DNA from: Anaerolineae bacterium
Lineage (GTDB): Bacteria; Chloroflexota; Anaerolineae; S140-20
Direction: 5' to 3'
Length of the DNA: 64,000 bases
Assembly: GCA_027021705.1 (NCBI GenBank)
Contig: JALUTT010000048.1
Span: 32,001 to 96,000 of the forward strand
The notes beneath the pieces are model-generated. The model did no database searches. It saw only the letters and a program-made list of their open reading frames with translations, and was not told where the DNA came from. The stretch's first letter is position 1. Every line of letters starts with the position of its first letter. A program made the position numbers and the translations under genes. Positions 28,821-51,400 of the stretch are shown in pieces.

Positions 28821-28851
28821 GTGGCAACGGGGCGTGTGAAGGGGTGATGTT

Positions 28852-33698: not shown

Positions 33699-35422
33699 GG
33701 GACCTCAACAAGCTTCAAGCCATATCCACAGAGGTACAGGCTCCTGATGAGGGAGAGCAGGGAGGAGGGCTTGGGAAGATGCCGCTCTTTGAAGAGGTGA
33801 CATCCTTTCCTCCCTTCCTGCTCATTGTGGTCTTCATCGTCCTGGTCTCCGAGGCGATCGTGAGCCTTCTGTTCGCCAGCCTGCCCGTGCAGGGAGTGCT
33901 TGCCCGGCTCGTCCTTCACACCTTGGTGCTGATCGGACTGATCAGTCCCGTTCTCTACCTACCGGTGGTCCGCCCGCTCGTCCGGCGGATGGCCGAGTAC
34001 AGGCAGATGGTGGAGAGGATGCAGCGGTTCGTTAATGCCGTTGAGCAGGCAGCCGAAGCCATCGTTATCACCAACCGCGAGGGGGTGATCGAGTACGTCA
34101 ATCCCGCCTTTGAGCGGGTCACGGGCTATCGCGCAGAAGAGGCGGTGGGGAAGACGCCGCGCATCCTGAAATCGGGCCAGCACCCGCCGGGGTTCTACGA
34201 GAAGCTCTGGGAGACCATCACCGCCGGCGAGGTCTTCCAGGCCGTCTTCGTGAACAGGCGGAAGGATGGGGAGCTATACTACGAGGACCGGATGATCGCC
34301 CCGATGAGGGATGCAAAGGGACAGATCACCCACTTCATCGCGACGGGCCGGAACATCACCCGGCGCAGGGAGTTGGAGGAGCGGCTGAACGCGGTCTACC
34401 GGCTGGGCCAGGAGCTGACGTTGCTCCACGACGAGGCGGCCATCATCTATCGAGCGCTGGAGGCTGCTGTCCAGGTGCTCCGGTGCGAGATCGCCGGCTA
34501 CGCCTCGGTGGACGAGACGACGAAGACGCTGACCTATCATTACCGCTTGATCCAGGGTCAGGTCGAGGCGGTCAGCTTCTCCCTGCCCCTGACCGCCAGG
34601 GAGGAGATCGGGGTGATCGCCGCCCAGAGCGGTCAGATCGTCAGGACCTCTGACGTGAGCTCCGACACCTCCTTCGCGCTCGTTCCGGAGGCGCTCTCCC
34701 ATCGTGCTGGGTTGTGTGTGCCGATGAAGGTAGGAGGACAGGTGATCGGTGTGTTGGGTGTCGCCAGATTTGAACCGGAGCCCTTTACGGCAGCCGACGA
34801 ACGGTTGCTACAGACCTTGGCCGACCAAGCTGCCGTGGCTCTGGAGAATGCCCGGCTTGTTGCCGAAGCCCAGGAGGCCCTGGAGGCCCTGCGCCGTGCT
34901 TACGGCGAACTGAGTCGGGAGGCCTGGGCCGGCTTGCTCCGCGTCCGGCCCGACCTAGGCTTCCGAAGCACGGAGCAGGGGGTTACCAGCGCGGAGGATG
35001 TGTGGCGACCAGAGATGGAAGAGGCCATCCGGGAGGGGAAGACGGTTCAGGCCAACGGTACCGGTGGGGATACCCGGCTCCCCCTCGCCATCCCCATCAA
35101 GGTACGAGGGCAGGTCGTGGGGGTGTTGGACACCTACAAGCCCAATGACGCAGGCGTGTGGACTCCGGAGGAGGTCACGCTGCTGGAGACGATCGCCGAG
35201 CAGTTGGGTGTGGCCCTGGAAAGCGCCCGGCTGTTCGAAGAGACCCGGCGTCGGGCCTGGCGGGAGCAACTCATCAGTCAGATCACCGCCCGCATCCGGG
35301 AAGCCAGCGATGTCGAGGGGGTGTTGCGGACGGCGGCCGAGGAGCTGGGCAGGGCCTTGAACGCTGCCCGTTCCCACGTCGCCCTCCAGGTGCCCGAAGA
35401 CTCGGAGTCCGCAGGTTCGTGA
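33695..35422 (+). CDS. Kinase-less receptor 7: 2 TM, PAS, GAF, C-terminal module
   Basis: AVEQAAEAIVITNREGVIEYVNPAFERVTGY...GKTPRILKSG...NRRKDGELY PAS/PAC. Confidence 0.87.
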   Translation: MRDLNKLQAISTEVQAPDEGEQGGGLGKMPLFEEVTSFPPFLLIVVFIVLVSEAIVSLLFASLPVQGVLARLVLHTLVLIGLISPVLYLPVVRPLVRRMAEYRQMVERMQRFVNAVEQAAEAIVITNREGVIEYVNPAFERVTGYRAEEAVGKTPRILKSGQHPPGFYEKLWETITAGEVFQAVFVNRRKDGELYYEDRMIAPMRDAKGQITHFIATGRNITRRRELEERLNAVYRLGQELTLLHDEAAIIYRALEAAVQVLRCEIAGYASVDETTKTLTYHYRLIQGQVEAVSFSLPLTAREEIGVIAAQSGQIVRTSDVSSDTSFALVPEALSHRAGLCVPMKVGGQVIGVLGVARFEPEPFTAADERLLQTLADQAAVALENARLVAEAQEALEALRRAYGELSREAWAGLLRVRPDLGFRSTEQGVTSAEDVWRPEMEEAIREGKTVQANGTGGDTRLPLAIPIKVRGQVVGVLDTYKPNDAGVWTPEEVTLLETIAEQLGVALESARLFEETRRRAWREQLISQITARIREASDVEGVLRTAAEELGRALNAARSHVALQVPEDSESAGS

Positions 35423-35509
35423 TGCGGTTCTCCTGGGCTTGCCAGCGTGGCGATCCGGCGGGTGGGGAGATCGCGGATTGACCCGGAGCACCGGAAGAAG
35501 GTACAGGGT

Positions 35510-37243
35510 ATGACGATGCAAGAAGAGATCCAGGAGCTGCAGGTAGAACTGGCCGCATGGCGCGAACGATTGGTTCGCGGTCTGTTGCGCGCCAGCCTGG
35601 TGGTGGGGGCTCTCGCCCTGGTCGCCGGCCTGATCAACGCCGTCACGGCTCGGGCCGTTCTGCTGGTCGTCATCTACGTGGCGGCCTACCTGGCGATGCT
35701 GGTCATCACCTTTGCCTCCCGTCTGCCCTACCTCCTGCGGGCCGGCGTCTTCCTGTTCCTCCTCTACGGGTTGGGGCTGGTGGGCCTGCTGGAAAGCGGG
35801 CTGAGCGGCGATGGACGGGTCTTCCTGCTCACCTTCCCCGTCGTGGCGACAGCCCTCCTGGGCCAGCGGGCCGGCATAGTCAGCCTGGGGCTGAGCCTGG
35901 TGACCCTGATAGGGGTGGGATGGGGGATGACCACAGGACTCCTGGACATCTCTGTGGAACAGATGGCCAACTCCACCGATCCCACCGCTTGGTTCAGCGG
36001 CAGTGTGGTCTTCTTGCTCCTGGCCCTGGCGATGCTTATCCCCACCGCTCACCTCTTGCGGGGGCAGGTCTTTGCCGCCCAGTTTGCCCGGCAGAACCGG
36101 GCCCTTCAGGAGGCCCAGGCCGCCCTTGCCGAAGTCCACCGCCAGCAGGAGGAGGCCAACGAGCGGTTGCGCCAGGCGCTGGAGGAGAGCGCACAGCGGG
36201 CTGGTCAGCTTCAGGTCATCACCGAATTGAGCCACGCCATCGCTCAGATCCGGGACCTGGATCGCCTGCTGTCGGAGGTCACCCACCTCATCGCCGATCA
36301 CCTGGGCTTCTACCACGTCGGCATCTTCCTGCTGGACGAGTCCGGTCGTTACGCGGTGCTCCAGGCAGCCAACAGTGAGGGTGGACAGCGTATGCTGGCC
36401 CGGGGGCACAAGCTGGAAGTTGGCGTTCAGGGCATCGTCGGGTACGTTACGGGGACGGGGAGACCCCGCATCGCCCTGGACGTGGGGGCCGATGCTGTCC
36501 ACTTCGATAACCCCGATCTGCCGGAGACCCGTTCGGAGGTGGCCCTGCCCCTTCGGATCGGGGAAGAGGTGATCGGGGCGTTGGATGTGCAGAGCAAAGA
36601 GACGGCGGCCTTTACCCAGATGGACGTCGTCGTCCTGCAGATGCTGGCCGATCACGTAGCCATCGCCATTGAGAATGCCCGGCTTCTCCGGCGGGTTCAG
36701 GAGGCGCTGCAGGAGGCCCGGGAGGCCCAGCGGCGCTACGTGGAGCGGGAGTGGTCGCTCTACCTCCGGCGTAGGCCCCGCCTCGAGGCCGCCTATGTGC
36801 CTATGGCCGCCCCGTCAGAGCCACCGCCGCGCACCGCTATTGAAGAAGCCCTGCGTAAAGGGGAGATGGTAGCCCTCTCGGGTGACGGTCGCCCCGCCTT
36901 CCTGGCCGTGCCCATCAAGCTGCGGGGGCAGGTCATCGGGGTCATAGACCTGCAGACAGCCGAGGAGGGCCGTCCCTGGACCGAGGATGAGATCGCGCTG
37001 GTCCGGGCCATCAGTGATCAGATGGCCTTGGCCCTGGAGAACGTGCAGCTCTTTGAGCAGACGGTGCGCCGGGCCGAGCGGGAGCATCTGGTCACCCAGA
37101 TCAGTGGGAAGATCCGCGCCTCGACCAATCTGGAGGCGATTGTGCAGACGGCTGCTCAGGAGCTGGCGCGCGCCCTGGGGACATCGCGGGTCCTGGTCCG
37201 CCTGGGGGTGGAGGAGGATGGGAAGCGGGGCATTGAGGGGTGA
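35510..37243 (+). CDS. Kinase-less receptor 8: ~6 TM plus GAF plus C-terminal module
   Basis: Hydrophobic N-terminus, core GAF PRIALDVGADAVHFDNPDLPETRSE, tail RAEREHLVTQISGKIRASTNLE. Confidence 0.86.
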   Translation: MTMQEEIQELQVELAAWRERLVRGLLRASLVVGALALVAGLINAVTARAVLLVVIYVAAYLAMLVITFASRLPYLLRAGVFLFLLYGLGLVGLLESGLSGDGRVFLLTFPVVATALLGQRAGIVSLGLSLVTLIGVGWGMTTGLLDISVEQMANSTDPTAWFSGSVVFLLLALAMLIPTAHLLRGQVFAAQFARQNRALQEAQAALAEVHRQQEEANERLRQALEESAQRAGQLQVITELSHAIAQIRDLDRLLSEVTHLIADHLGFYHVGIFLLDESGRYAVLQAANSEGGQRMLARGHKLEVGVQGIVGYVTGTGRPRIALDVGADAVHFDNPDLPETRSEVALPLRIGEEVIGALDVQSKETAAFTQMDVVVLQMLADHVAIAIENARLLRRVQEALQEAREAQRRYVEREWSLYLRRRPRLEAAYVPMAAPSEPPPRTAIEEALRKGEMVALSGDGRPAFLAVPIKLRGQVIGVIDLQTAEEGRPWTEDEIALVRAISDQMALALENVQLFEQTVRRAEREHLVTQISGKIRASTNLEAIVQTAAQELARALGTSRVLVRLGVEEDGKRGIEG

Positions 37244-37285
37244 GGTGACGAGGGCCGAGGGATGGGGTGAGGGGGAGCCACCGGT

Positions 37286-37358
37286 CGTCAACGAATGCGG
37301 GGAATGGGCCACCGCCGGCATCGGGCCTGTTCGTTTATTCGTTGGACATTCGTTGACG
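37286..37358. repeat. Palindromic ACGAAT/ATTCGT element, second copy
   Basis: CGTCAACGAATG...CATTCGTTGACG 12-bp inverted repeat with internal TTCGTT units. Confidence 0.75.
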
Positions 37359-37384
37359 GTGTACTATAGGAAGGGGAGACAACG

Positions 37385-38659
37385 ATGTTCCGAAGTGCCC
37401 GAACGATGAGGTTGCTGGTCGTTCTGTTCCTGCTCCTGCCTTTCGTCAGCGCTTGCCGTTCGGAACCACCGCCGCCGGCCGAGGTAACGATCGGGGTGAT
37501 CTACCCCTTCAGCGGGAGTCTGGAGGCCACAGGGGCTGACATCCGCCATGGCATCGAACTGGCCGTTGAGATCATCAACGGGGAGTTCAAGCTGGAGATG
37601 CCCCTGGCCTGGACGGCGGGCCTCCCCAACTTGCGGGGGGCGAAGGTGAAGGTCATTTACGCCGACCACGCAGGCGATCCCGACCAAGGAGTCGAGGCAG
37701 CCCGGCGGTTGATCGAGGAGGAGAAGGTGGTGGCTCTGGTGGGGTGCTACAACAGTAGCGTGACCGCTCCCGTCAGTCAGGTGGCCGAGGCGGCCAGTGT
37801 GCCCTTTTTGAACCCCGACTCCACGTCGCCCACCCTGACCCAACGGGGGTTCCGCTGGTTCTTCCGCACCACCGCCGATGATGCTATCTTCGTGCGCAAC
37901 TTTTTCGACTTCCTGGCCGATCTGCAGCAGGAGCGGGGCATAGCCCTCGGTTCGGTAGCCATCGTCTACGAGAACACCCTCTTTGGCACCGGCGTCGGGC
38001 AGTTGGAGCGCCGGTACGCCCAGGAGGCCGGACTCAAGGTCGTGGCCGATGTCCCCTACTCGGCCAACGCGACCAGCGTGGAGGCCGAGGTCCAGCGGAT
38101 CATCGCTTCCGGTGCCTCCCTGGTGATGCAGAGCTCCTACGCCCAGGATGCGATCCTGTATATGCAGACCTACAAGGCGATGGGCTACCGTCCCCAGGCG
38201 CTCCTGGCGATGGATGCCGGCTTCATCAGCCCGGTCTTCATCGAGACGCTGGGGGACGATGCCAATTACATCCTCAGCCGGGAGGTTTGGGCTCCAGACC
38301 TGGGGGAGACCCGGCCCCTGATCCGTCAGGTCAACACGCTCTTCCGGGGGCGCTACGGGACCAATATGACGGGCAACTCGGCCCGCGCCTTCACGGGCCT
38401 CATCGTCCTGGCCGATGCCATCAACCGGGCCGGCTCGACAGAACCCGAGGCTATCCGCCAGGCCCTTCTGGAGACCGACATCCCGGCCGAGCAGTTGATC
38501 ATGCCCTGGAAGGGCGTCCGTTTCGATTCCGAGACCGGTCAGAACACCCTGGCCCAGGGCATCATCGTCCAGATTCAGGACCGGGCTTACTACACCGTTT
38601 GGCCCTGGGACCTGGCAACGCGGGAGTTGATCTGGCCGATGCCCGATTGGGAGGAGTGA
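37385..38659 (+). CDS. Branched-chain-amino-acid-type (LivJ family) solute-binding lipoprotein, no permease nearby
   Basis: Lipobox VSAC; IGVIYPFSG, GIELAVEIING, WFFRTTADD, VLADAINRAGSTEPEAIRQAL. Confidence 0.9.
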   Translation: MFRSARTMRLLVVLFLLLPFVSACRSEPPPPAEVTIGVIYPFSGSLEATGADIRHGIELAVEIINGEFKLEMPLAWTAGLPNLRGAKVKVIYADHAGDPDQGVEAARRLIEEEKVVALVGCYNSSVTAPVSQVAEAASVPFLNPDSTSPTLTQRGFRWFFRTTADDAIFVRNFFDFLADLQQERGIALGSVAIVYENTLFGTGVGQLERRYAQEAGLKVVADVPYSANATSVEAEVQRIIASGASLVMQSSYAQDAILYMQTYKAMGYRPQALLAMDAGFISPVFIETLGDDANYILSREVWAPDLGETRPLIRQVNTLFRGRYGTNMTGNSARAFTGLIVLADAINRAGSTEPEAIRQALLETDIPAEQLIMPWKGVRFDSETGQNTLAQGIIVQIQDRAYYTVWPWDLATRELIWPMPDWEE

Positions 38660-38662
38660 GCG

Positions 38663-40933
38663 ATGGCTGAGCGACCCGCACGATCCCGCCGCCGGCGCAG
38701 TCTGGCACGGCGACTCGCCCAGGCCCTTGTCCTGACCACGGTGCTCCCGCTGCTGGTCGTGGGCGTGATGCTGGTCCTGGTCAGCCGTAATGTCCAGATC
38801 CAACACGTGATCGCCCTCCACCAGGAGATCGCCGAGGAGGCGGCTCTCACCATCTCGTCCTACTTGGACAACGCCGAGAACGTGCTAAGCGCCTTCGCCC
38901 ACACCCACGATCTCACGGCTCTGGACCTGCCCTCTCAGCAGTCTGCCCTGGAGGAGCTTCTGTTCAGCCAGCCGGATGTGTTTGAGGACCTGGCCCTGCT
39001 GGACCGCTCCGGTCGGGAGGTAGTGCGGGTTTCGCACTTCCACACCTTCTTGCCCGATGAGTTGGAGGACCGGGCCGAGACCGAGGCCTTTCAGCAGGCC
39101 ATCAAGGGCGAGGTTTACACGGCTGGGGAAGCCTACATCTCGCCCTACAGCTCCCTGCCGGTGATGACGATGGCGGTTCCCGTCCTTTCCGAGGCAGGTG
39201 AGCCTGTTGGCGTCCTGATCGCCGAGGTCAGCCTCAAGACGATGTGGGACACCGTGGCTCGTGTCCAGGCGGGGCTGGCCGGCTATGCCTATATTGTGGA
39301 CCGGTCGGGACACATTGTGGGGCACACGCGGGTGAGCCGCTACTTCCGGCTTCAAGAACGGGACCTGACCTTCATCCCGCTGGTCCGGGATCTGGTGGAG
39401 GGTCGGGAGCCGGTATCTCACCTCTACAAGGGGCTGGAGGGCGAGCGGGTCATCGGGGTTCTGGCACCCATTGAGGGTACCAATTGGGCGGTCGTCGTCG
39501 AGGTCCCCACCCGTGAGGCTTTCGCCAGCCTGCGGCGTATGGTCTACCTGTTCATCGGCACCCTGGTGGTAGCAGCGTTGATGGCCGGTGGGTTGGGGCT
39601 TCTGCTGCCCCGGCGCATCATCCGCCCACTCCGCCTGCTGCAGGAGGGCGCTGCGGCCATTGGGGCCGGACGGCTGGAGCACGTCATCCAAGTGCGGACC
39701 AACGACGAGCTAGAGGACCTGGCCGAGGCCTTCAACACGATGGCGGCCCGGCTGCAGGAGAGTCGGGCCCAACTGGAGCGCTGGGGCCAGGAGTTGGAAC
39801 GGCAGGTAGAGGAGCGGACGGCCGAACTGGCCGAGGCCTCGGAGCGCCTCCACCGCCGCGCCGACCAGCTTCAGGCCATCGCCGAGGTCGGGCGTGCCAT
39901 CACCCTGGTCAGTGACCTGGACCAGATGCTCACCCAGATCACCCAACGCATCAGCGAGCGCTTTGGCTTCTACCACGTGGGAATTTTCCTGCTAGACGAG
40001 GTGGGAGAGTACGCCATCTTGCGGGCGGCGAATAGCGAGGGGGGGCAACGGATGCTGGCCCGGGGGCACCGGCTGAAGGTGGGCGAGAAGGGCATCGTGG
40101 GCTACGTTACCAGCACTGGCGAGCCTCGTATCGCCCTCGATGTCGGTGAGGATGCCGTCTGGTTCGACAACCCAGACCTGCCCCTCACCCGCTCCGAGTT
40201 GGCCCTGCCCCTAAGGGTGGGTGGCGAGATCATTGGGGCCTTGGACGTGCAGAGCACCGAGGAGGCCGCGTTCACCGAGGAAGATGTCGCCGTGCTCAGC
40301 ATGCTGGCCGACCAGGTGGCCGTCGCCATCCAGAATGCCCGCCTGCTCGCCCGCACTCAGCAGGCCCTGGCCGAGGTGGAGGAGACCCATCGCCAGTACC
40401 TGCAGCGGGAGTGGCGGGAGATCACAGCCCAGCGCGGACCGTTGGTCTACGAGTACACCCGCGCCGGGACGCCTCCTGTGAGGGAAACCCTCCTTCCCGA
40501 GATGAAGCGGGCGATGGAGGAGGGCGAGGTCGTTGCCGTGCCCATCTCCGATGGGGATGGTGGGGATGGGGCGACCGCGGGATCGGCCTTGGCCGTCCCC
40601 ATCAAACTGCGAGGGCAGGTCATCGGTGTGATAGACCTGCAGGAGATTGGAGATGGTCGGCAGTGGACGGAGGAGGAGATCGCCCTCGTGCAAGCCATTA
40701 GCGATCAGATGGCCCTGGCAGCGGAAAACGTCCGCCTGTTGGAGGAGACGGAACGCCGTGCTGTGTGGGAGCATCAGGTCCAGGCGATCACCTCCAAGAT
40801 CCGCCGTTCGCCCGATCTGGCGACCATTCTCCAGACGGCAGTGGAAGAGTTGGGGCGGGTCCTGAGAGCCGACCGAGCCCTCGTTCGTCTGAGAGTAGAG
40901 ACTCCAGAGACGGACCAAGAGCTGGAGGAGTGA
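38663..40933 (+). CDS. Kinase-less receptor 9: TM-dCache-TM-HAMP-GAF plus C-terminal module
   Basis: YAYIVDRSGHIVGH Cache motif, TNDELEDLAEAFNTM HAMP, core GAF. Confidence 0.87.
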   Translation: MAERPARSRRRRSLARRLAQALVLTTVLPLLVVGVMLVLVSRNVQIQHVIALHQEIAEEAALTISSYLDNAENVLSAFAHTHDLTALDLPSQQSALEELLFSQPDVFEDLALLDRSGREVVRVSHFHTFLPDELEDRAETEAFQQAIKGEVYTAGEAYISPYSSLPVMTMAVPVLSEAGEPVGVLIAEVSLKTMWDTVARVQAGLAGYAYIVDRSGHIVGHTRVSRYFRLQERDLTFIPLVRDLVEGREPVSHLYKGLEGERVIGVLAPIEGTNWAVVVEVPTREAFASLRRMVYLFIGTLVVAALMAGGLGLLLPRRIIRPLRLLQEGAAAIGAGRLEHVIQVRTNDELEDLAEAFNTMAARLQESRAQLERWGQELERQVEERTAELAEASERLHRRADQLQAIAEVGRAITLVSDLDQMLTQITQRISERFGFYHVGIFLLDEVGEYAILRAANSEGGQRMLARGHRLKVGEKGIVGYVTSTGEPRIALDVGEDAVWFDNPDLPLTRSELALPLRVGGEIIGALDVQSTEEAAFTEEDVAVLSMLADQVAVAIQNARLLARTQQALAEVEETHRQYLQREWREITAQRGPLVYEYTRAGTPPVRETLLPEMKRAMEEGEVVAVPISDGDGGDGATAGSALAVPIKLRGQVIGVIDLQEIGDGRQWTEEEIALVQAISDQMALAAENVRLLEETERRAVWEHQVQAITSKIRRSPDLATILQTAVEELGRVLRADRALVRLRVETPETDQELEE

Positions 40934-41890
40934 GTGGTGTCTTCCTCGCTTACCTGGGAAGCTTTTGCTCGGATGCCTTTGCCGGAAGTTGCGACGCTGG
41001 TCGGTCAGAGGCTGCGCAGCCTTCTGGTCGTCGCCGATGGCACGCAGCGCTGGTTCGTCTGCGAGAAGAAGTCGGGTAATGTCTTGTCCCAGACCTACTG
41101 GAGCGAGTACATGGAGGTGGTCAGCCGCCAGTATGCTGCCTTGCTGCACCTCCTTTTCACCCACGGCGTTCCTACCATCTTCGAGCCGCTGGTGATGCCC
41201 GTGGGGCGGAGCGAGGAGGAACTGAAGCGAGGGCTGGCCAACCTACCGCGCATTGTGGCCGACAAACCGTTCCGAGAGCTTTACGAGGAACTGGACATCC
41301 GGGTTCGCTTCTACGGCCCTTGGATGTCACTTCTGGAGGAGGTGGGACGACCGGACTTATGGGAGGTCTTGAACCGTCTGACCGAGGAAACGGCTCATCA
41401 CTGGCGTCACCGGCTCTTCTGGGGGATCTACATACCGGGGATCTCTCCCCAAGAAGAGATGGTCCGCTTCACGGTGGAGCGGGCTCGATCTGGGGCGGGG
41501 TCTGTGAGCCGAGAACAGTTGGTGGTTGCCTATTACGGTGAGCCTGTTGAACCTGTGGAAGTCGCGATCCTGTTGGCGGGACAGCCCCGGGCTGCCAGCT
41601 ATCTTCCCCCCTTTCTGGGGGATGATGCCGACTTTTACTTCACCGTCAACTCCCCGCTGGGGATGGACGCGCTGCAGTTGCGGGCCATCCTTTACGACAA
41701 GCTGTTCGCCCGTCGAGAGGCGGCCCGAGAGTACACGCGCCTCTCCCCCCAGGGGTTGGCGGAGATCCGTGAACTTTACGAACAGAATAGAGGGCACACG
41801 CTGGGCATAGGCCGCTGGTCGGAAACGGGTCAGTTCTGGTACCCGCTCCCTCAGGTGAACCTCCCTCCCACGCTCATGCCGGGGACGTAG
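40934..41890 (+). CDS. Rv3378c-like diterpene synthase / tuberculosinyl-transferase family protein (cis-prenyltransferase-like fold)
   Basis: Co-linear with the recalled M. tuberculosis Rv3378c sequence: FARMPLPEVATLV, DGTQRWF, LLFTHGVPTI, VRFYG, HRLFWG, SREQLVVAYYGE, FYFTVNSP, LRAILYD, LGIG...GQFW. Confidence 0.85.
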   Translation: MVSSSLTWEAFARMPLPEVATLVGQRLRSLLVVADGTQRWFVCEKKSGNVLSQTYWSEYMEVVSRQYAALLHLLFTHGVPTIFEPLVMPVGRSEEELKRGLANLPRIVADKPFRELYEELDIRVRFYGPWMSLLEEVGRPDLWEVLNRLTEETAHHWRHRLFWGIYIPGISPQEEMVRFTVERARSGAGSVSREQLVVAYYGEPVEPVEVAILLAGQPRAASYLPPFLGDDADFYFTVNSPLGMDALQLRAILYDKLFARREAAREYTRLSPQGLAEIRELYEQNRGHTLGIGRWSETGQFWYPLPQVNLPPTLMPGT

Positions 41891-41949
41891 GAGGTAGGTG
41901 GCGGGGCGCAAGGGGCTAGTTGCAAGTTGCAAGGAGTAGGTGGCAAGTC
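41887..41949. repeat. Degenerate heptamer tandem repeat (GYAAGNN-like), 9 units
   Basis: gtaggag gtaggtg gcggggc gcaaggg gctagtt gcaagtt gcaagga gtaggtg gcaagtc. Confidence 0.65.
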
Positions 41950-42013
41950 GGGGGCGGGAGCCCCATGAGTTGTCGTTTTGCCGGGAGTTGTACAACAAAA
42001 GGAGGCGCGGAAA

Positions 42014-43543
42014 ATGGCACGGATAGACCTCGTTGCGGAAGCGGAGGCGTTGCTCAAGGCGATGGACATGGGGGATATGGGACCCTCAATCTACGATGCG
42101 GCTTGGGTGGCCCGTCTGAAGGACCCGGGGAGTGGAGAACCGCTCTTCCCGGGGGTTCTGGAATGGATTCGCCAGTCCCAGCATCCCGATGGGAGCTGGG
42201 GGAGCGAAGTCGAGTACTACCCGGATCGGATTATCTCGACGCTGGCGGCCCTCGTAGCCTTGATGGAGCACAGCCCGCGCGCGGGGAATGGTCGGGCAAT
42301 TGGGCGAGGGCTGGCTTATCTGGAGAAGACGTGGCCGTTGGTTCAGGGGGTTCCCCATCTCACTGTGGGATTTGAGGTCATTGTCCCCACCTTGTTGGAG
42401 GAAGGGGGGCGGCTGGGATTACCTTTGAACGGCTGGATGACGGAGGCGCAGCGGATGCGTCTCGAGCGGTTGCGGCGGATACCGCCAACGATGATCTACT
42501 CGCCTAAAAGCACCATCTCCTTCTCGCTGGAGTTCTTGGGAGATTACCTGGATGTCGCTCGGGCGAGGGAAACTCTGTTGTTGCCCAATGGTTCCATTGC
42601 CAATGCGGTTGCCAGCACTGCTTACTTTGCCGCTCGAACTTACGAGGAGAAGACGCTGATTTATCTTGACCATCTGCTTTCTGCTCAGGGGGAGCACAAT
42701 GTTCCCTTTGTGCATCCCTTCGAAGTCTTCGAGCGGAACTGGGTGCTTTACAATCTTCATTTGGCTGGACTATTGGACCAGGTGGTCCATGCTGCTCGTC
42801 CCCACCTAATGTATCTTTACAAGGCTTGGGAGGAGGACGGCTTGAGTTTCTCTGCTGAGTGCCCGTTAAAGGATTTGGACGATACTGCGATAGGCTACTT
42901 GCTCCTGAAGTCTTATGGCTTCGATGTTGATGCTCAAGCGTTTGCTCTTTACGAGAGGGATGATTTCTTTGAATGTTATCCTTTTGAAATGCACACAAGC
43001 GTGGGCACCAATGCGCATACTCTCCACGCATTAACAGTTTTCCCTCGTAAGCAGCAAGAGGAGGTTAAGGCTAAAGTCTTCTCTTACCTTCAGTCTCAGA
43101 AGGTACAAGGAGCATATTGGTTTGACAAGTGGCATGTTTCACCTTACTATGCGACTGCTCAGGTGATCTTTGCGGTTGTCTTGCTCGAGAGGGAGTGGGT
43201 TGAGGATAGTATTCTCTGGATTGAAAGTACTCAGCGCTTGGATGGGGGATGGGGGTTCTATGGGGTATCTACGGTGGAAGAAACAGCACTGGCTTTGCAG
43301 GGGCTCTTGGCCTATGCTAATGCTGGTGGGAATGTGGCGTCGGAGGTGATCCATCGGGGTGCTTCTTTCCTTCACCGAGCTTTGGAAACCGATGCGAGAT
43401 TACCGGCGCTCTGGATTGGAAAAGGGTTGTATCGTCCTATTCATATCATTCGTTCTTCTATCCTTAGCGCTTTAGCAATGTATGAAGCTTGGTGTCCAAG
43501 GAGTCAGAAGCTGGTTGGAGGCTCAGCCTTTTCACAGGTGTGA
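42014..43543 (+). CDS. Class II diterpene cyclase (Rv3377c / Haur_2145-like, beta-gamma prenyltransferase fold)
   Basis: SIYDAAWVARL, QHPDGSWG (QW), STLAALVAL, VGFEVIVP, catalytic DxDD (DLDDTA), WFDKWHVSPYYAT, QRLDGGWG, EETALAL, LWIGKGLY; GGAGG RBS. Confidence 0.92.
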   Translation: MARIDLVAEAEALLKAMDMGDMGPSIYDAAWVARLKDPGSGEPLFPGVLEWIRQSQHPDGSWGSEVEYYPDRIISTLAALVALMEHSPRAGNGRAIGRGLAYLEKTWPLVQGVPHLTVGFEVIVPTLLEEGGRLGLPLNGWMTEAQRMRLERLRRIPPTMIYSPKSTISFSLEFLGDYLDVARARETLLLPNGSIANAVASTAYFAARTYEEKTLIYLDHLLSAQGEHNVPFVHPFEVFERNWVLYNLHLAGLLDQVVHAARPHLMYLYKAWEEDGLSFSAECPLKDLDDTAIGYLLLKSYGFDVDAQAFALYERDDFFECYPFEMHTSVGTNAHTLHALTVFPRKQQEEVKAKVFSYLQSQKVQGAYWFDKWHVSPYYATAQVIFAVVLLEREWVEDSILWIESTQRLDGGWGFYGVSTVEETALALQGLLAYANAGGNVASEVIHRGASFLHRALETDARLPALWIGKGLYRPIHIIRSSILSALAMYEAWCPRSQKLVGGSAFSQV

Positions 43544-43561
43544 GCATAGGAGAACCAGAAT

Positions 43562-46500
43562 ATGAGGGAGAGATTAGTAGAAGCGCTAACGGTCCAACCA
43601 GATGACCTGTTGCGGATCCGGCCATTGCTGGAAGTTATGCTTAAAGGGTTAATTGTGGCTACAGCGGCAGGTACGGTGGTTTTCGTTGGGGCTGCCGTGA
43701 TAGGTCAGCGTGGGTTCTGGGTGCTCAGCGGGCTTAACCTGCTTATGCTGATCGTGATGATTGGCATAGGGAGGCTGAACCAGCGAGGGCATACCAATGC
43801 GGCCATCCATACTCTGCTAGCAGTGATTACCCTTTACGTCACTGTAGCATCACCGCCGGGTTTCCTAGTGGCTGGACCGGAGCTAGCAGTCTATGCCGTA
43901 CCGATTACTGCTGCGGGGTTGCTGCTTACACCAGCGGCTGCGGGCTTCTGGGCGGTGATCACCACGATAGCCGCCTTGGCTCGCATGATAGTAGTCACCC
44001 TGTTCCTCGATGTGGTGGTCAGTCCCATAGCCCTCACCCTAGGGGTCATCGTGCTTTATTTGCTGGCCCTCTCCACCTGGCTCTTCGCCCGTTCCCTTCA
44101 GCAGGCCAACCGGAACCTGCGCCGGCGGATCGGGCAGATCCAGACGGGGGCCGAGATCAGCCGGGTGGTCACGGCAGCCCTCGAGCCCGGCCTGATCCAA
44201 TGGCCGGCCGTCCAGTTGATCCAGACCGGCTTCGGTTACTACCACGTCGGCTTCTACGTCCTCGACCCTGAAGGGCGTTGGGCCGTCCTCACGGAGGCGG
44301 CCGGCGAAGCTGCCGATCGTATGAAGCAGGAAGAGCATCGCCTGCCCTTGGACGGCTCTACCGTCGTCGCCGCCGCCTTCGCCCAACGGGCCCGCCAGAT
44401 GCTCGTCCTCGGCGAGGAAGGGCCATACAGCCCCAACGGACGCCCTCTTCAGCCCAACGATCGCTTCCTACCCCAGACCCGGGCGGAGTTGGCGCTGCCC
44501 CTCCAGGTGGGGGAGCGGCTCCTGGGCGTGCTGGATGTGCACAGCACCCAGCCTCTCCCCTTCCCCGACGAGGAGATCGAGGCCCTGGAGGGCATCGTGG
44601 GGCAGGTCGCCGTGGCCCTGGAGAATGCCCACCTCTTCGAGGACCTTCACCAACGCCACCAGGAGCTGCGGGAACTCCATCAGCAGACGGAGCGCCGGGC
44701 TCGCTACCTGGAGGCTACCGCCGAGTTGGCCCGGGCGGTCAGTTCGCTGCTCGATCTGCAAGCTCTGCTGGATCGGGCGGTTAACCTCATCAGCGAGCGG
44801 TTCGGCTTCTACCACGCCGGTATCTTCCTGGTGGACGAGGCCGGCGAGTGGGCCGTGCTCCAGGCGGCCAACAGCGAGGGCGGACAGCGTATGTTGGCCC
44901 GGGGGCACAAGCTGCGCGTGGGTGAGCAAGGCATCGTCGGCTGGGTCACCCACGCCGGAGAACCCCGCATTGCCCTGGACGTGGGTGAGGATGCCGTTCA
45001 CTTCGACAATCCCGACCTGCCCAACACCCGCTCGGAGATGGCTCTCCCCCTCAGGGTGGGAGACCGGGTGATCGGAGCCCTGGACATCCAGAGCACCCGA
45101 GAGGCCGCCTTCAGCGAGGAAGACGTGGCGGTCCTCCAGACTTTGGCCGACCAGATCGCCATCGCTATCGAGAATGCCCGCCTCTTCCAAGAGACCCAGA
45201 GGGCCCTGGAGGAGGTGCAGACCCTGCACCGCTACTACCTGGCCCAGGCGTGGGAGCAGTTCACCCGGCAGCGCAGAGACCTCAGCGCGGAATACCGCCG
45301 CCTGGGCGTGCCCCCTCTGGAGAGAGCGTGGTCTCCCGAAATGGAGATAGCCCTGGCTCAGGAGCGCCCTGTGGTCTTGACAGACCTGGAAGCGGAGCTA
45401 CTGGGCGGGGATGGACAGGAGGGGAATCGGGACGACGGAACCGATGGTCGCTCTGCGCTGCCGGCCCGTTCTGTCCTAGCCGTCCCCATCAAGCTGCGCG
45501 GCGAGGTAATCGGTGTCCTGGACTTGCAGGCGACAGAGGAGTCCCGCCGCTGGACCGACGAAGAGGTGGCGATGGTCGCCGCCGTGGCCGACCAGATGGC
45601 CCTGGCTCTGGAGAACGCCCGGCTTCTGGAGGCCGAGCGGGATCAGCGCCAAGTCTCCGAAGCGCTGCGGGAGGCCGCCGTGGCCCTGAGCAGCACCCTG
45701 GAGTTCGACGATCTGGTCCAACGCATCCTGGAGCAGATCAGCCGGGTCGTCCCCGGCGATGCCAGCAACCTGATGCTCATCGAGGGAGACGAGGTGCGGG
45801 TCGTGGGGCGCCGGGGTTACGAGCACTTCCAGTTTGTGGACCTCCTGCGTGAGCGCCGGGTTCCTCGGGATACCCTCAACACCCTGCGCAAGATGGCAGA
45901 GACAGGCCGTCCCGTCGTCATCCCGGACACGGCTTCCGATCCCGACTGGCGTCTCCTACCCGGTTCGGAGTGGATCCGCTCTTACGTGGGAGCGCCCATC
46001 CAGGTTCGGGGGGAGATCATCGGCCTCCTGAACGTGGATAGTGCGACACCGGGCTTTTTCACCCAGGAGCACGCTGACCGACTGGCGGCTTTCGCTGCCC
46101 AGGCAGGCATCGCCCTTCAGAACGCCCGGCTCTTCGAAGAGACCCGACGACACGCCCGTGAGGTCCGCCAGCTCTACCAGTTGGGTATGGCCCTTAGCGC
46201 CACCCTGGACCTGGAAGAAGCGCTCCAGACGGTGGCCGATGGGGCTCGGGAACTCCTCGAGGCGTCCAGCGCGGCGGTCTACTACTGGGATGAAGGGACG
46301 CAGCGTTACACCTACCGCTTTAGCCTGGGGGAGACTCACCTCGATGCCGAGGGCCTTTTCCAGGAACCCCGCCCCGGTGGGATGACCGAGACGATCCATC
46401 GTACGGGCGAGCCTGTCCTGGTCGAAGACGTCCGTCTGGATCCCCGGGTTGCCTCTCACGTCGTAGAGGCGGGGGTCCGCTCCTTCGTCGGCGTCCCCAT

Positions 46501-48373
46501 CCAGGTGGGCGGGCGTCGCATCGGTGTGGTCTTCGCCAATGGAGAGCAGCCCGGTCAGTTTGGCGAGCACGAGCAGAACCTGCTCACCTTCCTGGCCAGC
46601 CAGGCGGCCATCGCCTTGCAAAATGCCCGTCTCTTCGAGGAAGTCCAGACCCGCGCCCGCCACGAGCACGCCTTGCGCGAGATCACCGCGGTCATCAACA
46701 CCAGCGAGAGTTTGGTGGAGGAACTCCCCGTCATCGCCGGACACCTCCGGCAGTTGGTGCCCGTGGACACCCTCGCCCTGACCATCTACGTACCGGGGGA
46801 GTCCGAGTACACCCTCTTCGCCGTGGAGGTGAGCGGGGAAAGGACTCCCTTTGCCCAGAGGGGTGCCCGACTCCCGGTAGAGGGCACCGGCCCTGGGTGG
46901 GTCCTCACCCACGGCGAGCCGTGGATAGACGACGATCTCCGCCAGCAGCTTTCCTTTGTCGAGGATGAGCACGTCCTTGCCCAGGGATTGCGCTCCCGGG
47001 CGATCCTTCCCCTCCGGGTCGGCGAACGGGTCATCGGCACCCTCAACCTTGCCAGCACCCAGCCCGGGGTGTTTACCGAAACCGATCTTCCTCCCCTGCG
47101 GCTGATCGCCGGTCAGATGGCCCTGGCCCTGGAGCGGGTCCGCCTCTTCGAGGAGACTCAGCAGCGGGCCCGAGATCTGGACAAGCTCTACCAGGCGACG
47201 CGGGTCATCAGCACTGAACTGGACTTGGAGCCGCTGGCGGAGAAGCTGGCAGAAGAGGCTCGGAATCTGGTGGAGGCCCATTACAGCGGCATCCTGATCT
47301 TCCATCCCAATCCGGACCAGCCGGTCTATTTCAAGACGGCCGGCGTGGACCTCGATCGCTTCCAGTTGTCGGGTCGGCCCGAGGGCAAAGGGGTGTTGGC
47401 CGCCATCCTCGAGGGGGAGGCGGTCCGGCTGGACGACATCTCGAAGCACCCCCGTTCCGTCGGTCTGCCGCCGGAGCACTTCCCCCTCAAGCGGCTGTTG
47501 GGCTTGCCTATCGTCTACCACGGTCAGGTGCGGGGCATCTTGTTGGCAGGACGTGATGCCAATGGTGCTCCTTTCACCGAGGCGGACTTCTCCTTGCTCC
47601 AGGCTCTGGCAGCTTCGGCGGCCGTCGCCGTGGAGAATGCTCGGCTCTTCCTCAAGACCCAGGAGGCGTTGGCGGAGACGGAGGTTCTCTACCGGGCCAG
47701 CCGGGCCATCGCTGTGGCCCAGACGCCCGAGGACGTGTTGCGGGCCTTCACCGATCACATCGTCACACCGGAGATTGGCCGTTGCGTCCTGGCCCTGATA
47801 GATCCTGGCAGCCCGCCGGACCAACGGGAAGTAGAGATCGTCGCTGCGTGGGAGCCGGGGGTGGAACGACCGGCTGTGGTTGGAAACCGCTGGAACGCTT
47901 CTCAGATCCCCTTAATAGACCGGATCGGCCAGGATCCTCTGGTCATCTCCGACGTGGAGACCGCCTCAGAGATGGACGAGGTCTCCCGCCACATCTTCCT
48001 AGACATCCTGGGGATTAGGGCGTTCATCGCCATCCCCATGCTGGTCGGTGAGCGGCTGCTGGGCTGGCTGCTGGTCGAATCCCTGGAGGGGCCTTACGAG
48101 TTCAGCGAGCGGGAGAGGCGGCTCTACGAGGCCCTGGCCGGACAGGCTGCCGTCGCTCTGGAGCGCCAGCGTCTCTTCGAAGAGGCTCAGAGGCGGGCTC
48201 GCCGCGAGCGGCTGATCCGGGAGATCACCACCAAGGTGCGTGCCGCCACCGATGTGGACACGATCCTGCAGACCGCCCTTCAGGAGATCAGCCAGGCGTT
48301 AGGGACCACCCACGCGGCGATCCGCTTGGGAGTCCAAAGCCCAGAGTTTGGAAATGGAGGCTCGGAGAGGTAG
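43562..48373 (+). CDS. Kinase-less receptor 10: ~6 TM plus about 8 GAF domains plus C-terminal tail
   Basis: Hydrophobic N-terminus; repeated ALENARL GAF ends; tail RARRERLIREITTKVRAATDVD; no output motif seen. Confidence 0.87.
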   Translation: MRERLVEALTVQPDDLLRIRPLLEVMLKGLIVATAAGTVVFVGAAVIGQRGFWVLSGLNLLMLIVMIGIGRLNQRGHTNAAIHTLLAVITLYVTVASPPGFLVAGPELAVYAVPITAAGLLLTPAAAGFWAVITTIAALARMIVVTLFLDVVVSPIALTLGVIVLYLLALSTWLFARSLQQANRNLRRRIGQIQTGAEISRVVTAALEPGLIQWPAVQLIQTGFGYYHVGFYVLDPEGRWAVLTEAAGEAADRMKQEEHRLPLDGSTVVAAAFAQRARQMLVLGEEGPYSPNGRPLQPNDRFLPQTRAELALPLQVGERLLGVLDVHSTQPLPFPDEEIEALEGIVGQVAVALENAHLFEDLHQRHQELRELHQQTERRARYLEATAELARAVSSLLDLQALLDRAVNLISERFGFYHAGIFLVDEAGEWAVLQAANSEGGQRMLARGHKLRVGEQGIVGWVTHAGEPRIALDVGEDAVHFDNPDLPNTRSEMALPLRVGDRVIGALDIQSTREAAFSEEDVAVLQTLADQIAIAIENARLFQETQRALEEVQTLHRYYLAQAWEQFTRQRRDLSAEYRRLGVPPLERAWSPEMEIALAQERPVVLTDLEAELLGGDGQEGNRDDGTDGRSALPARSVLAVPIKLRGEVIGVLDLQATEESRRWTDEEVAMVAAVADQMALALENARLLEAERDQRQVSEALREAAVALSSTLEFDDLVQRILEQISRVVPGDASNLMLIEGDEVRVVGRRGYEHFQFVDLLRERRVPRDTLNTLRKMAETGRPVVIPDTASDPDWRLLPGSEWIRSYVGAPIQVRGEIIGLLNVDSATPGFFTQEHADRLAAFAAQAGIALQNARLFEETRRHAREVRQLYQLGMALSATLDLEEALQTVADGARELLEASSAAVYYWDEGTQRYTYRFSLGETHLDAEGLFQEPRPGGMTETIHRTGEPVLVEDVRLDPRVASHVVEAGVRSFVGVPIQVGGRRIGVVFANGEQPGQFGEHEQNLLTFLASQAAIALQNARLFEEVQTRARHEHALREITAVINTSESLVEELPVIAGHLRQLVPVDTLALTIYVPGESEYTLFAVEVSGERTPFAQRGARLPVEGTGPGWVLTHGEPWIDDDLRQQLSFVEDEHVLAQGLRSRAILPLRVGERVIGTLNLASTQPGVFTETDLPPLRLIAGQMALALERVRLFEETQQRARDLDKLYQATRVISTELDLEPLAEKLAEEARNLVEAHYSGILIFHPNPDQPVYFKTAGVDLDRFQLSGRPEGKGVLAAILEGEAVRLDDISKHPRSVGLPPEHFPLKRLLGLPIVYHGQVRGILLAGRDANGAPFTEADFSLLQALAASAAVAVENARLFLKTQEALAETEVLYRASRAIAVAQTPEDVLRAFTDHIVTPEIGRCVLALIDPGSPPDQREVEIVAAWEPGVERPAVVGNRWNASQIPLIDRIGQDPLVISDVETASEMDEVSRHIFLDILGIRAFIAIPMLVGERLLGWLLVESLEGPYEFSERERRLYEALAGQAAVALERQRLFEEAQRRARRERLIREITTKVRAATDVDTILQTALQEISQALGTTHAAIRLGVQSPEFGNGGSER

Positions 48374-48454
48374 TCCCGGAGTCCTCGTCCTGGTGTGGTG
48401 AGCCGAGGACAAGAGTAGGAAGTTCAGAGTTCTGAGGTACAGGTGAGGGGAAAA

Positions 48455-51400
48455 ATGGCCGACTCAACCCACTCAGCCCACCCACAAGACCTCCTCGACC
48501 GGCTCCTGTCCATCGTCGCTGGGATAGACGAGGGGGAGCAGCGTGAGGCCCTGCAGCAGCCGTTGGAGGCGCTGCGGAAGGCGCTTGCCGTCTCCTCGGA
48601 TCGGAGCCGTCGCCTCTACGAGGCCAGTCGGGCGATCAGCCTGGCCGCCGATATGGCTGAGGTGGGACGGGCTCTGATGGACTTCATCGCGACCTGTGAC
48701 GTGGATGTGGGCCGGCTCTTTCTCTTCCGGGCGGATCCGTCTGGTGAGCCGGTTGAGATCGAGATGCGCGAGGGATGGAAGCGGAGCGGTGAGCCCTCTC
48801 AGGTTCCCTACGGCACCCGTTTCCCGCTGGCCGATTACCCTCTGCGTGAGGCTATGCAGCCTGACCAGGTCTTCATCTGCTCCGATGTGGGGACGGATCC
48901 CCGGTTGAATGAGACCATCCGGGCGATGATGCTCGCCTCCGAACTGCACTCCTTCATCATCGTCCCGATGACGGTGGAGAGGCGGTGGTTGGGTGCCATT
49001 CTCGTAGGACGGGAGGTCCCCTCCACGTATGATGAAGGGTTGGTCTACGCCCTCTGGACGCTGGCCGGACAGGCTGCGGCCACGCTGGAGAACCGCCAGC
49101 TCCTGGCCGACTTCCAAGGAACAGCCGAGCAGATGGTCCTGCTCAACCAAATCCTCCAGACGGCTACGACGACCCTAGACCTCCGGGAGGCCCTCGATTC
49201 CATTGCCCGACAGACGGCCCTGGCGCTGAACAGGATGTGCGGCATCTTTCTTCTCGAGGAAGATGGCGAGCACCTGCGGGTGGGCTGCTTGTGGGGACCC
49301 GATGGCCATACCCACACGTCTGAGGAGGCCCTCGTCTTCCCTCTCTCAGAGAATCCCGGTATGGAGGCAGCCGTTCGGGAGCAGAAGACCCAGGTCCTTG
49401 ACCAGGTTCAGACCCGTGCCCGGGGAACAGCCCGCCACCTGGCCCAACTCTCCCGGGCGGAGACGGCCGTCTACGCCCCCTTGCTGACCCGAGAGCGTGT
49501 GGTGGGGGTGCTGGAGGTCTCCGCCCCCGTCGGCCATCCCCCCTTCACGCCGGAGCAGATCGGCACGGTCTCCACCATTGCCCGCCAGATGGGTATCGTG
49601 GTGCAGAATGCTCGACTCTTCCAGGAAACCCAGGCCGCTCTGGAGGAGACAGACCTGCTCCTGGAGACCAGCCGGGCCCTGGCCCTCGCCCTGACCCCCC
49701 AGGAGGTGGCCGATCTCCTGGCAGAGCGCTTGATGGCCACAGGCGTTGACCGTTGTAGCGTGGTTCTCTGCGATACCTACGGAGAGGATGGGCTCCCTCA
49801 GTGGGCGGAGGTGATGGCCATCGGCGACGTGGACCCGGAGAGGCGAAAGCTGGGCCTGCACTACCGCTATCCCATCGAAACCTACCCTACGATACAGAAG
49901 TTCCTCCGTGCTCCAGAAGCCTTCGTGGTGACCGATGTGCGCACCGATCCCCGCCTCACCGAGGAGGAGCGAATCTATATGGAAAATATCGGGGGGGTGG
50001 CTTTCATCGCCGTCCCGATGGTGCGCCGGGGACAGGTCCTGGGCTACATCTTCGCCGAACACAGCCATCCCTATACCTTCAGTCAGCGGGAGCTTTCCCT
50101 GTACCAGGCGATGGCCGATCAGGCAGCCGTGACGCTGGCCAACATGCGTCTCTTCGAGCGGGTTCAGCAAGGGTGGCGCGAGACCGAGGTCCTCTATCAG
50201 GTTGGCCGCTCCTTGGTCGCTGCCTCTTCCTTGGAGGAACTGCTGGAGTGTGCGGCCCAACCGGCCATCGAGGCAGGGGCGTCGGCCGCCAGCCTCTACC
50301 TCTTCGACCCGAATGAGGCGGAGCAACCGGAGTGGGGCATCCTGGCCGCCCACTGGCAGCGCGAGGGTGATCCTCCCTTCCCCGTGGGTACTCGGCTCTA
50401 CTTGGCCGATTTCCCCTTCACCCAGCTCTTCCTGGCGGATCCCCAGACCCCTTACCTGATCGGGGATATGGAGGCGGCCGAGCAGGTGGATGAGACTACC
50501 CGGGATGTGGCCCTGCAACTGGGGGTGCGAGCGCTGGTTGTCATCCCCTTGGTGACCCGGGAGCGTCGGATTGGTATCCTGGCCATTCCCTGGGATGAGC
50601 CCCACCAATTCAGTGAGGAAGAGGAGCGGCTCTATCGGGCGCTGGGACCGTTGGCAGCGCCGGTCACGGAGAGCTTGCGCCTACTGGAGGACACACGGCG
50701 TCGGGCACTCCAGTTCCAGACCGTGACGGAGGTTGCCCAGGCGGCCAGTACCATCCTGAACCTGGATGAGTTGCTCTCCCAGTCGGTGGAGTTGATCAGG
50801 GAGCGCTTTGACCTCTACTATGCCGGTATCTTCCTGGTGGATGAATACGGGCAGTGGGCGGTGCTGCGGGCGGGCACCGGCGAGGCCGGCCGGGCGCAGA
50901 TCGAGGCCGGTCACCGGCTGGAGGTGGGGGGCAACTCGATGATCGGCTGGTGCACGGCCCACGGAAAGCCCCGGGTAGCCCTAGACGTGGGGAAGGAGGC
51001 CGTGCGCTTTGAGAACCCCTACCTGCCCGATACCCGCTCGGAGATGGCCCTGCCCCTCATCAGCCGGGGGCAGGTGATCGGTGCGATGACCATCCAGTCC
51101 ACCCAGGTCGCTGCCTTCACCGACGAGGATGTCACAATCCTCCAGGCTCTGGCCGACCAGTTGGCCGCGGCCATTCAGAATGCCCGTCTCTTCGAGCAGA
51201 CCCAGCAGGCCCTGCAGGAGGTCAGCCGGGTTCACCAGCGTTACATCCGTGAGGCCTGGGAGGAGTACACAGCCCATCGTCAGCGTCCGACAGGCTACTT
51301 CCTGGGCCCCGACGGCATCACGGCTGCCGACGTCTGGCGACCGGAGATGGCCTTGGCGGTGGAGCGGGAGGACCTGCTGATCCTCTCCGAGGCCGACGAC

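Follow-up and report, generated by a model that had tools for sequence, protein, structure and literature searches.

A window of 64,000 nt from the genome of an Anaerolineae bacterium (assembly GCA_027021705.1, contig JALUTT010000048.1, positions 32,001 to 96,000; G000:C48:32001-96000 in our coordinates, G000 being the genome, 5.19 Mb in 183 contigs) contains two adjacent genes, here called A and B, whose products are homologous to Rv3378c and Rv3377c of Mycobacterium tuberculosis and which lie within an array of receptor genes. We found that in Chloroflexota this pair is usually followed by a gene beginning with a six-helix membrane domain, and that the gene after B in the window, rec10, begins with the same domain. 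Sequence comparisons thus point to a linkage of the pair to this one sensor domain and not to the receptor array as such. We put at roughly 0.55 the probability that the product of A and B is what the six-helix domain reads. The original prediction, made from the DNA sequence alone, had described the pair as embedded in the array; this observation was confirmed, Pfam placing GAF receptors on both sides. The features at the centre of the locus are as follows.

38663..40933 (+), rec9 ("receptor 9"), a dCache_1-HAMP-GAF receptor with a C-terminal half-GAF/tail module (Pfam, tail alignment)
40934..41890 (+), gene A, Rv3378c family, 318 aa, GTG start, presumed transferase or phosphatase using a diterpenyl diphosphate (PDB phmmer, 12 homologues, conservation among 99 sequences)
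41891..42013 (+), spacer between A and B, 123 nt; a GGAGG motif precedes the ATG of B by 8 nt (sequence)
42014..43543 (+), gene B, Rv3377c-subfamily class II diterpene cyclase, 509 aa when started at ATG (PDB, Pfam, family columns)
43562..48373 (+), rec10, 1603 aa, six-helix membrane domain plus eight GAF domains, no kinase domain (Pfam)
43562..44120 (+), six-helix membrane sensor domain of rec10 (hidden Markov model [HMM], hhalign, structure model)
42640..44060 (+), dimorphic segment with low G+C content at third codon positions (GC3), covering residues 210-509 of B, the 18 nt between the two genes and the first 166 or so residues of rec10 (GC3, metagenome contigs)

The genes are tightly packed. 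As had been noted, the TGA of rec9 (40931-40933) abuts the GTG of A with no spacer, and GGAGGAG lies just upstream of this GTG; the stop of B is followed after 18 nt by the start of rec10, with AGGAG ahead of it. No terminator-like sites were found in the gaps between rec9, A, B and rec10 (3 were detected in 11 kb vs 6.3 expected, all 3 within coding sequence), and the locus is presumably co-transcribed.

Relatives of A were collected from one genome per species, which yielded 90 loci; the best 80 of the 90 were kept, and these are all from Chloroflexota metagenome-assembled genomes (MAGs), with 27–37% identity. A cyclase homologue is present in 69 of the 80, mostly directly downstream of A. 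When all open reading frames (ORFs) up to 5 kb from the pair were clustered with no labels given beforehand, a canonical order emerged: a FemAB-like/GNAT gene, then a gene for an ICMT-family methyltransferase or GT87, then A, B and a histidine kinase. The upstream partners are FemAB-like/GNAT (50 loci), an ICMT-family membrane methyltransferase (38) and a GT87-type glycosyltransferase (36), and the neighbours also include MacB/FtsX and ABC genes. In 61 of the 88 loci having both A and B, the 600 nt behind B contain the start of a same-strand kinase ORF; several of the remaining 27 stop at a contig edge. The gap from B to the next gene is mostly 0–30 nt. The canonical kinase has about 565 aa, with an N-terminal region of about 190 aa belonging to no known family, followed by PAS, HisKA and HATPase domains.

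Full-length A-B pairs in the M. tuberculosis gene order are common in Chloroflexota (90 species-representative loci; 211 cyclase proteins at E ≤ 1e-30). A 2022 survey lists 126 'terrabacterial' relatives of the cyclase (PMC9814783), and a 2024 paper reports that a search for orthologues of Rv3376-3378c beyond mycobacteria failed and infers a plasmid origin from composition (PMC11476799). The Chloroflexota pairs may affect this view of the ancestry of the mycobacterial locus. No published account was found of the pair in Chloroflexi, or of a diterpene cyclase with a histidine kinase there; in the available text of the 2022 survey, which does not extend to its supplementary neighbourhood network, neither 'histidine kinase' nor 'sensor' occurs (PMC9814783).

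An HMM was built from 54 distinct kinase N-terminal regions, with the window and the array-linked loci excluded, and was run against G000, whose six-frame translation gave 12,984 ORFs of 150 aa or more. rec10 came first (E 7.4e-19, HMM positions 4-185 of 203), followed by a receptor of the same array (22652-24361, E 7.3e-13), with nothing else below 8e-4. A second sensor-domain profile (A2, 27 sequences) matched rec10 alone in G000 (8.8e-20), and hhalign aligned the rec10 domain with the canonical one over 173 columns with a probability of 96.8%. The domain matches no Pfam or NCBIfam family. The window therefore shares with the canonical operon A, B and, immediately downstream, a gene that begins with the six-helix domain, but differs from it in three respects: i) PAS, HisKA and HATPase are not on the same protein, the domain being joined to eight GAF domains in an array and the kinase lying on the next gene (48443-56242); ii) the window has no ICMT, GT87 or FemAB-like neighbours, and with these queries none was found in G000 either (tblastn, 1e-5); and iii) the segment with two haplotypes described below has so far been seen only here.

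Within the window's class, the distribution of the domain was followed in 401 evenly sampled genomes, 44 of which carry the cyclase (one genome, G388, is unpublished, and no result rests on it). Compared by coordinates, and with the reservation that kin genomes are not independent, the domain is present in 54 of the 401 genomes, i.e. in 28 of the 44 with the cyclase vs 26 of the 357 without. In 26 of the 28 genomes holding both, the best domain match adjoins the cyclase. This co-occurrence and adjacency suggest that the sensor domain is what the pair is tied to.

The same data could be explained if the sensor controls the pathway. The domain would then respond to a different membrane or envelope cue (for instance temperature, fluidity or stress), production of a structural membrane diterpenoid would be adjusted by the kinase or the array, and co-location would keep regulator and target together. 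The adjacency of cyclase and sensor fits this equally well, and the envelope-type neighbours of the canonical loci (ICMT-family, GT87, FemAB-like, MacB/FtsX and ABC genes) as well as the 26 genomes that carry the domain with no cyclase found are in its favour. On the other hand, no DNA-binding regulator is attached in the window, the enzymes lie upstream of the sensor and not downstream, and the joint replacement of the cyclase C-terminus and the sensor input, described below, is left unexplained. We regard pathway control as the main rival to ligand sensing, a possible explanation although a doubtful one.

An AlphaFold2 model of the domain (31-row alignment) had a predicted local distance difference score (pLDDT) of 88.7 and a predicted TM-score (pTM) of 0.80, and consists of six membrane helices and an exit helix at 155-199. 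The top four matches in a structural search with VIA against representative structures were P. aeruginosa ImcA (Z 13.9) and the membrane domains of the class III adenylyl cyclases AC9 (12.8), AC5 (12.2) and M. tuberculosis Rv1625c/Cya (12.0), with the next at 8.7, although such Z values are borderline for helical bundles; the alignments to the nucleotidyl-cyclase domains cover 149–190 residues. The predicted fold of the rec10 domain, six helices and a long exit helix, thus resembles these domains at a borderline level; they have no detectable sequence similarity to the rec10 domain and are joined to other output domains. Since such cyclase 6TM membrane domains have been reported as lipid receptors (PMC11606603, PMC12505454), lipid sensing by the six-helix domain would be a reasonable model.

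The other receptor of G000 with the pair-associated six-helix domain (22652-24361) has its own neighbour. A gene for a DUF6989 polytopic membrane protein (219 aa, 21946-22605, +, Pfam E 1e-40) lies 47 nt upstream of it and may be a second ligand-related gene; a single paralog of the protein occurs in G000, on C161, and the fetched loci contain none. ORF 21666-22619 (317 aa, no family), which overlaps the DUF6989 gene, was considered as a second A and rejected: it has no similarity to A, and its GC3 of 0.51, vs about 0.8 in real genes, indicates that it is probably not coding.

Part of the cyclase and most of the sensor domain lie in a segment that exists as two haplotypes in nature. From about 0.8, GC3 drops to 0.50 across residues 210-509 of B, is 0.60 over rec10 residues 1-166, and then returns to 0.81. 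Coverage of the stretch was obtained from four hydrothermal-vent metagenome runs of two studies, X1, X2 and X3 being among the runs and X1 possibly the source. In X1, three contigs break at the borders of the patch: 38000-42540 (depth 73.8), 42511-44090 (depth 60.2, zero differences from the window) and 44061-46000 (depth 74.4). From the depth of the patch relative to its flanks, most genomes with these flanks carry the patch. An assembly chimera as the source of the low-GC patch was rejected on these depths and because identical pieces occur in the second study. In X2, the main contig (7139 nt, depth 17.8) is window-like up to 42639, with 40 differences, and continues into a diverged stretch of equal length; the window version is present there only as short pieces at depths of 3–10, and X3 is similar.

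Among database proteins, P0016, whose longest contig also has 7139 nt, is identical to the window B over residues 1 to 209 (209/209) and shares only 183 of 284 residues (64.4%) over 210-493. P0017, from a related organism, shares 90.9% and 64.4% with the window B over these two parts, and 90.9% and 83.2% with P0016. On the receptor side, P0135, a partial rec10 ortholog, has 64.6% identity over residues 85-166 and 90.4% over 167-613. The window thus carries a divergent type (type 1) of a unit of about 1.4 kb that takes in the catalytic C-terminal part of the cyclase and most of the membrane domain of the sensor. Its closest relatives are of type 2, and X1-X3 each contain both. The second haplotype was found by protein search; a scan of metagenome contigs with B retrieved only the window contig (L138) and relatives at 36–44%. 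Both B types keep DLDDT, DKW and the Tyr base, and at the A475-equivalent position Gly is found in the window type and Ala in the others. P0016 and P0017 (67–68%) are still closest to the type-1 segment, all others having at most 44%; because these two remain the nearest, the type-1 donor would be an unsampled member of the same clade, and its B-sensor junction was presumably the same.

In nature, the C-terminal part of the cyclase has been exchanged together with the sensor domain as one unit, with A and the GAF part of rec10 staying 100% or about 90% alike. In the B. subtilis comQXP and S. aureus agrBDC loci, the signal-making enzyme is encoded beside a membrane sensor, a hypervariable segment has sharp borders within the synthase gene and the sensor input domain, and several types coexist. 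The window locus is similar in having the enzyme beside the sensor, a variable segment extending from the synthase into the membrane input of the sensor, and coexisting types, but differs in that there is no peptide precursor, the presumed signal being a diterpenoid, and in that two types are known. The haplotype pattern thus resembles pherotype polymorphism, in a single known case. We consider it possible, but as a tentative proposal, that a self-made diterpenoid acts as a cell-to-cell or self cue, that cyclase and receptor co-diversify into pherotypes, two of which would exist in the vent populations, and that this system has been plugged into the GAF array.

The identity of the two enzymes was examined against solved structures and in conservation alignments of 97 cyclases and 99 A homologues taken from the fetched loci, window included, in which columns conserved at 95% or more were counted as near-invariant. 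The open frame of B begins at TTG 41978 (521 aa; ORF 41978-43543, +). The likelier start is ATG 42014: GGAGG stands 8 nt ahead of it, and the protein read from it corresponds to P0015 (509 aa). The original prediction of a cyclase with DxDD and QW motifs is borne out: the best solved relative is Rv3377c (6vpt, E 1.3e-66, residues 32-502), other class II cyclases being far weaker (PtmT2, 5bp8, 3.4e-34; Tpn2, 7xkx, 3.1e-29), Pfam SQHop_cyclase_C is matched at 2e-16, DLDDT lies at residue 299 (TTG frame), with the central Asp in all 97 aligned relatives, and there are two QW-like motifs (QSQHPDGSW at 66 and QRLDGGW at 419). B retains 53 of 56 near-invariant columns, including the DKW motif, and has Tyr at the positions of Rv3377c Y479 (LWIGKGLY) and Y328 and Gly at that of A475. 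Mutagenesis has identified Y479 as the base that gives the halimadienyl product of Rv3377c (PMC9585517), and most members of the subfamily were judged from the same two positions to be halimane formers (PMC9814783). B thus looks functional, and there are moderately strong indications that its product is a halimadienyl-type diphosphate. No geranylgeranyl diphosphate (GGPP) synthase had been seen in the window, and the only polyprenyl synthase (PF00348) matches in G000 are indeed elsewhere, on C120 and C156.

The proposed co-linearity of the upstream gene with Rv3378c also holds, A matching the solved chains of that protein over residues 9-294 of 318 (phmmer against PDB, 3wqk, E 6.1e-23); no Pfam or NCBIfam family was matched. 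A contains the motif ADGTQRW at residues 34-40. The Asp of the DGTxRW motif, which had been pointed out as retained, is present but does not define the family, since this position is Asn in 85 of the 99 homologues and Asp in only 4, the window among them. For Rv3378c, Chan et al. in 2014 reportedly proposed a two-Tyr mechanism (Y51, Y90), and roles in Rv3378c are ascribed to D34, Y51 and Y90. A retains D35, R39 and Y59, the last being equivalent to Y51, but has Glu96 at the position of Y90 (Tyr in 97 of 99 homologues, Glu in the window only) and Gln38 at that of R37 (Arg in 94 of 99). As judged from its conserved columns, A therefore seems intact but atypical.

These substitutions raise the question of whether the pathway is decaying or has been repurposed, A having lost catalysis through Tyr to Glu and Arg to Gln and the locus persisting in a role other than diterpenoid synthesis. 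In agreement with this, Glu96 is unique among the 99 sequences, Gln38 likewise stands where the family is nearly invariant, the branch of B in the cyclase tree is long (see below), and the canonical tailoring genes were not found in G000 with the queries used. Decay is nevertheless highly improbable: A keeps 24 of its 28 near-invariant columns and B 53 of its 56, there are no frameshifts or stops, the same Glu is carried by P0003, a Chloroflexi MAG protein 92% identical to A, and the active-site motifs of B are maintained in both haplotypes.

In M. tuberculosis, the Rv3378c-Rv3377c pair, which makes 1-tuberculosinyladenosine, has the same order, transferase then cyclase. A aligns end to end with its counterpart and B keeps the acid of the DxD motif as well as the Y479-equivalent Tyr, but identity is only about 30%, and the mycobacterial cyclase has DxDTT where B has a complete DLDDT. 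The window locus is fused to sensory genes, whereas the M. tuberculosis locus is described as constitutive and largely unregulated (PMC11476799). Within Chloroflexota, Haur_2145-2147 of Herpetosiphon aurantiacus include a class II cyclase tied to O-methylkolavelool (PMC5704754, PMC9814783), and the ICMT-family methyltransferase frequent in canonical A-B loci recalls this system; Haur_2145 differs in that it groups with gibberellin-type ent-copalyl diphosphate synthases and not with the Rv3377c subfamily to which B belongs (PMC9814783).

The surroundings of the pair bear on how it reached its present place. The receptor tail module occurs in 64 ORFs of G000, which fall into 47 clusters and make up 3.6% of the genome, but only one of the clusters is large (12 genes), and the pair is inside it. 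The receptors have an unusual build, in which a varied sensor is followed by HAMP and GAF domains, the 'RYxxEAW' linker, a half-GAF and the conserved tail, without an output domain, and the tail module is found in 219 of the 401 class genomes at E ≤ 1e-30. The array and its end genes are as follows.

15212..56242 (+), co-directional receptor array with 12 tail-module genes (Pfam; genome-wide HMM, cluster at 15194-56239)
48443..56242 (+), hybrid histidine kinase, 2599 aa, with about 12 GAF, HisKA, HATPase and 2 REC domains (Pfam), likely the output of the array
56255..58027 (+), threonine-synthase-like pyridoxal phosphate (PLP) enzyme fused to a receiver domain, end of the array (Pfam, NCBIfam)

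Just past the array are genes for a DNA methylase and a BsoBI-like restriction endonuclease (58221-60818, +), where the GC content is lower (0.57).

In G001, a genome of the same family as G000, a syntenic array is present on contig C52 (29800-65989) with the order kept, a kinase and a ParA-like ATPase coming first and the hybrid kinase and the PLP/receiver fusion last. Identities to G001:C52 are 48% for the first kinase, 62% for the ParA-like ATPase, 36% for the binding protein, 44% over the full length for rec9, 64% for the C-terminus of the hybrid kinase (G001:C52:62184-64154) and 69% for the PLP-enzyme/receiver fusion. A, B and an ortholog of rec10 are all missing from the G001 array, and therefore the A-B-rec10 block sits, relative to G001, between rec9 and the hybrid kinase. 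G001 instead holds a canonical A-B-kinase locus on C163. In a quick LG+G4 tree of 97 cyclases, G001 and G002, also of that family, group elsewhere with a support of 100, and the window stands alone on a branch of 0.96. Vertical inheritance of the window pair within the family is thus unsupported, though the window branch is long.

Linkage of homologous pairs to array-type receptors was counted in 42 of the 44 cyclase genomes (G214 and G219 were left out). The pair lies against tail-module receptors in 5 of the 42. Linkage to GAF receptors in other genomes, which the original prediction had suggested checking, is thus present in four genomes besides the window's, as a minority arrangement. Receptors flank the pair on both sides in G000, G005 and G099; in G366 and G263, A is followed by three receptors and B is divergent. 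On the tree the five genomes form three groups, G005 with G099 (support 100), G366 with G263 (97) and the window, and the starred branches force at least 2 changes. In all five, the receptor adjacent to the pair carries the sensor domain (G099, 2.1e-20; G005, 4.6e-16; G263, 1.2e-11; G366, 3.1e-5; rec10 as above). Around A homologues, a GAF-domain HMM matched at only 5 of 86 loci, and linkage to GAF genes in general is therefore rare. These patterns suggest that linkage to the GAF array is a recurrent minority form of a general module of enzyme and sensor. The idea of a self-produced signal is accordingly strengthened where it concerns the adjacent sensor domain and the haplotype segment and weakened where it drew on the position within the array.

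A further possibility is that a mobile biosynthetic cassette with a fragment of its neighbour landed by horizontal transfer in a recombination-prone array, with no functional tie to the receptors. That only 5 of 42 cyclase genomes show this arrangement, that receptor genes are as abundant as noted above, that the window pair does not group with those of its family, and that its composition is atypical would all be expected in that case. Chance landing is unlikely, since the pair is found within the one large array among 47 clusters, receptor flanking recurs (on both sides in G005 and G099, on one side in G366 and G263) with at least two or three origins on the tree, the adjacent receptor always has the pair-associated membrane domain, and the in-frame fusion is preserved in a relative (P0135) and maintained in two haplotypes. 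Both chance insertion and decay appear less likely than regulation of the pathway by the sensor.

Several other features of the array-linked loci were recorded. In G099 (C479, locus L095, 6248-8511, -), genes for a NUDIX-domain and a SIS-domain protein lie between A and B within the array and may provide tailoring or nucleotide/sugar-phosphate steps. Solute-binding proteins of different families are encoded in the arrays of all five genomes (window 37385-38659; L092 13443-14462; L095 1418-2485; L125 4521-5549; L128 4498-5448), which suggests that the arrays collect accessory genes for ligand handling. The cyclase of G005 (genus g6) groups with that of G099, from another family (61% identity, support 100), and not with those of G132 and G164, two congeners with canonical pairs. 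Contig C142 of G005 moreover begins with a truncated sensor domain of the canonical type, and the pattern looks like a transfer of the array-type cassette between families.

We return to the reading in which the six-helix domain reads the product of A and B. Apart from its adjacency to the cyclase, which fits pathway regulation just as well, several points weigh against it: 1) The domain is not bound to the pair, since among the 26 genomes with the domain and no cyclase found some have strong scores. 2) A Foldseek search of PDB with the sensor-domain model was negative at E ≤ 0.001, and helical bundles can reach Z values of about 13. 3) In 20 close canonical pairs, the sensor domain is the most diverged part (mean identity 0.67, vs 0.82 for A, 0.87 and 0.83 for the N- and C-terminal parts of B and 0.82 for the kinase core), but this is weak support, because the pairs share members and membrane helices often drift. 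4) The activity of A may be changed or lost, because Glu96 and Gln38 replace a near-invariant Tyr and Arg. 5) The long branch leaves the placement of the window B on the tree unsure.

If the domain does read the product, the system could work as follows. B would cyclise GGPP to a bicyclic diphosphate, probably of the halimadienyl/tuberculosinyl type, and A would remove or transfer the diphosphate to give an alcohol or an adduct. The A-B pair would be one half of a conserved Chloroflexota module, the other half being the sensor encoded by the next gene, whose six-helix domain would sense the lipophilic product in the membrane, either directly or via an effect on the bilayer. In most genomes the domain would drive a PAS histidine kinase. 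In the window lineage, the A-B-sensor cassette would have been placed between two receptors of a pre-existing GAF array and the domain fused to eight GAF domains; because it is fused to a GAF receptor of the array, a diterpenoid cue would feed the array's hybrid kinase. The rewiring to a GAF output and the co-varying haplotypes appear to be new, as they were not found in print.

That the pair is so regularly partnered with a membrane sensor points to a physiological role, and the system is tractable, with a single enzyme pair, a single receptor domain and two types found in nature. Should the diterpenoid prove to be the ligand, the module would represent a new class of bacterial lipid signal-receptor pair, and the window would show how an input domain can be rewired in nature, its output passing from a kinase to a GAF array. 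If the pherotype interpretation is also true, the locus would be a terpenoid counterpart of agr and comQXP, and a free-living relative of the 1-tuberculosinyladenosine pathway of tuberculosis.

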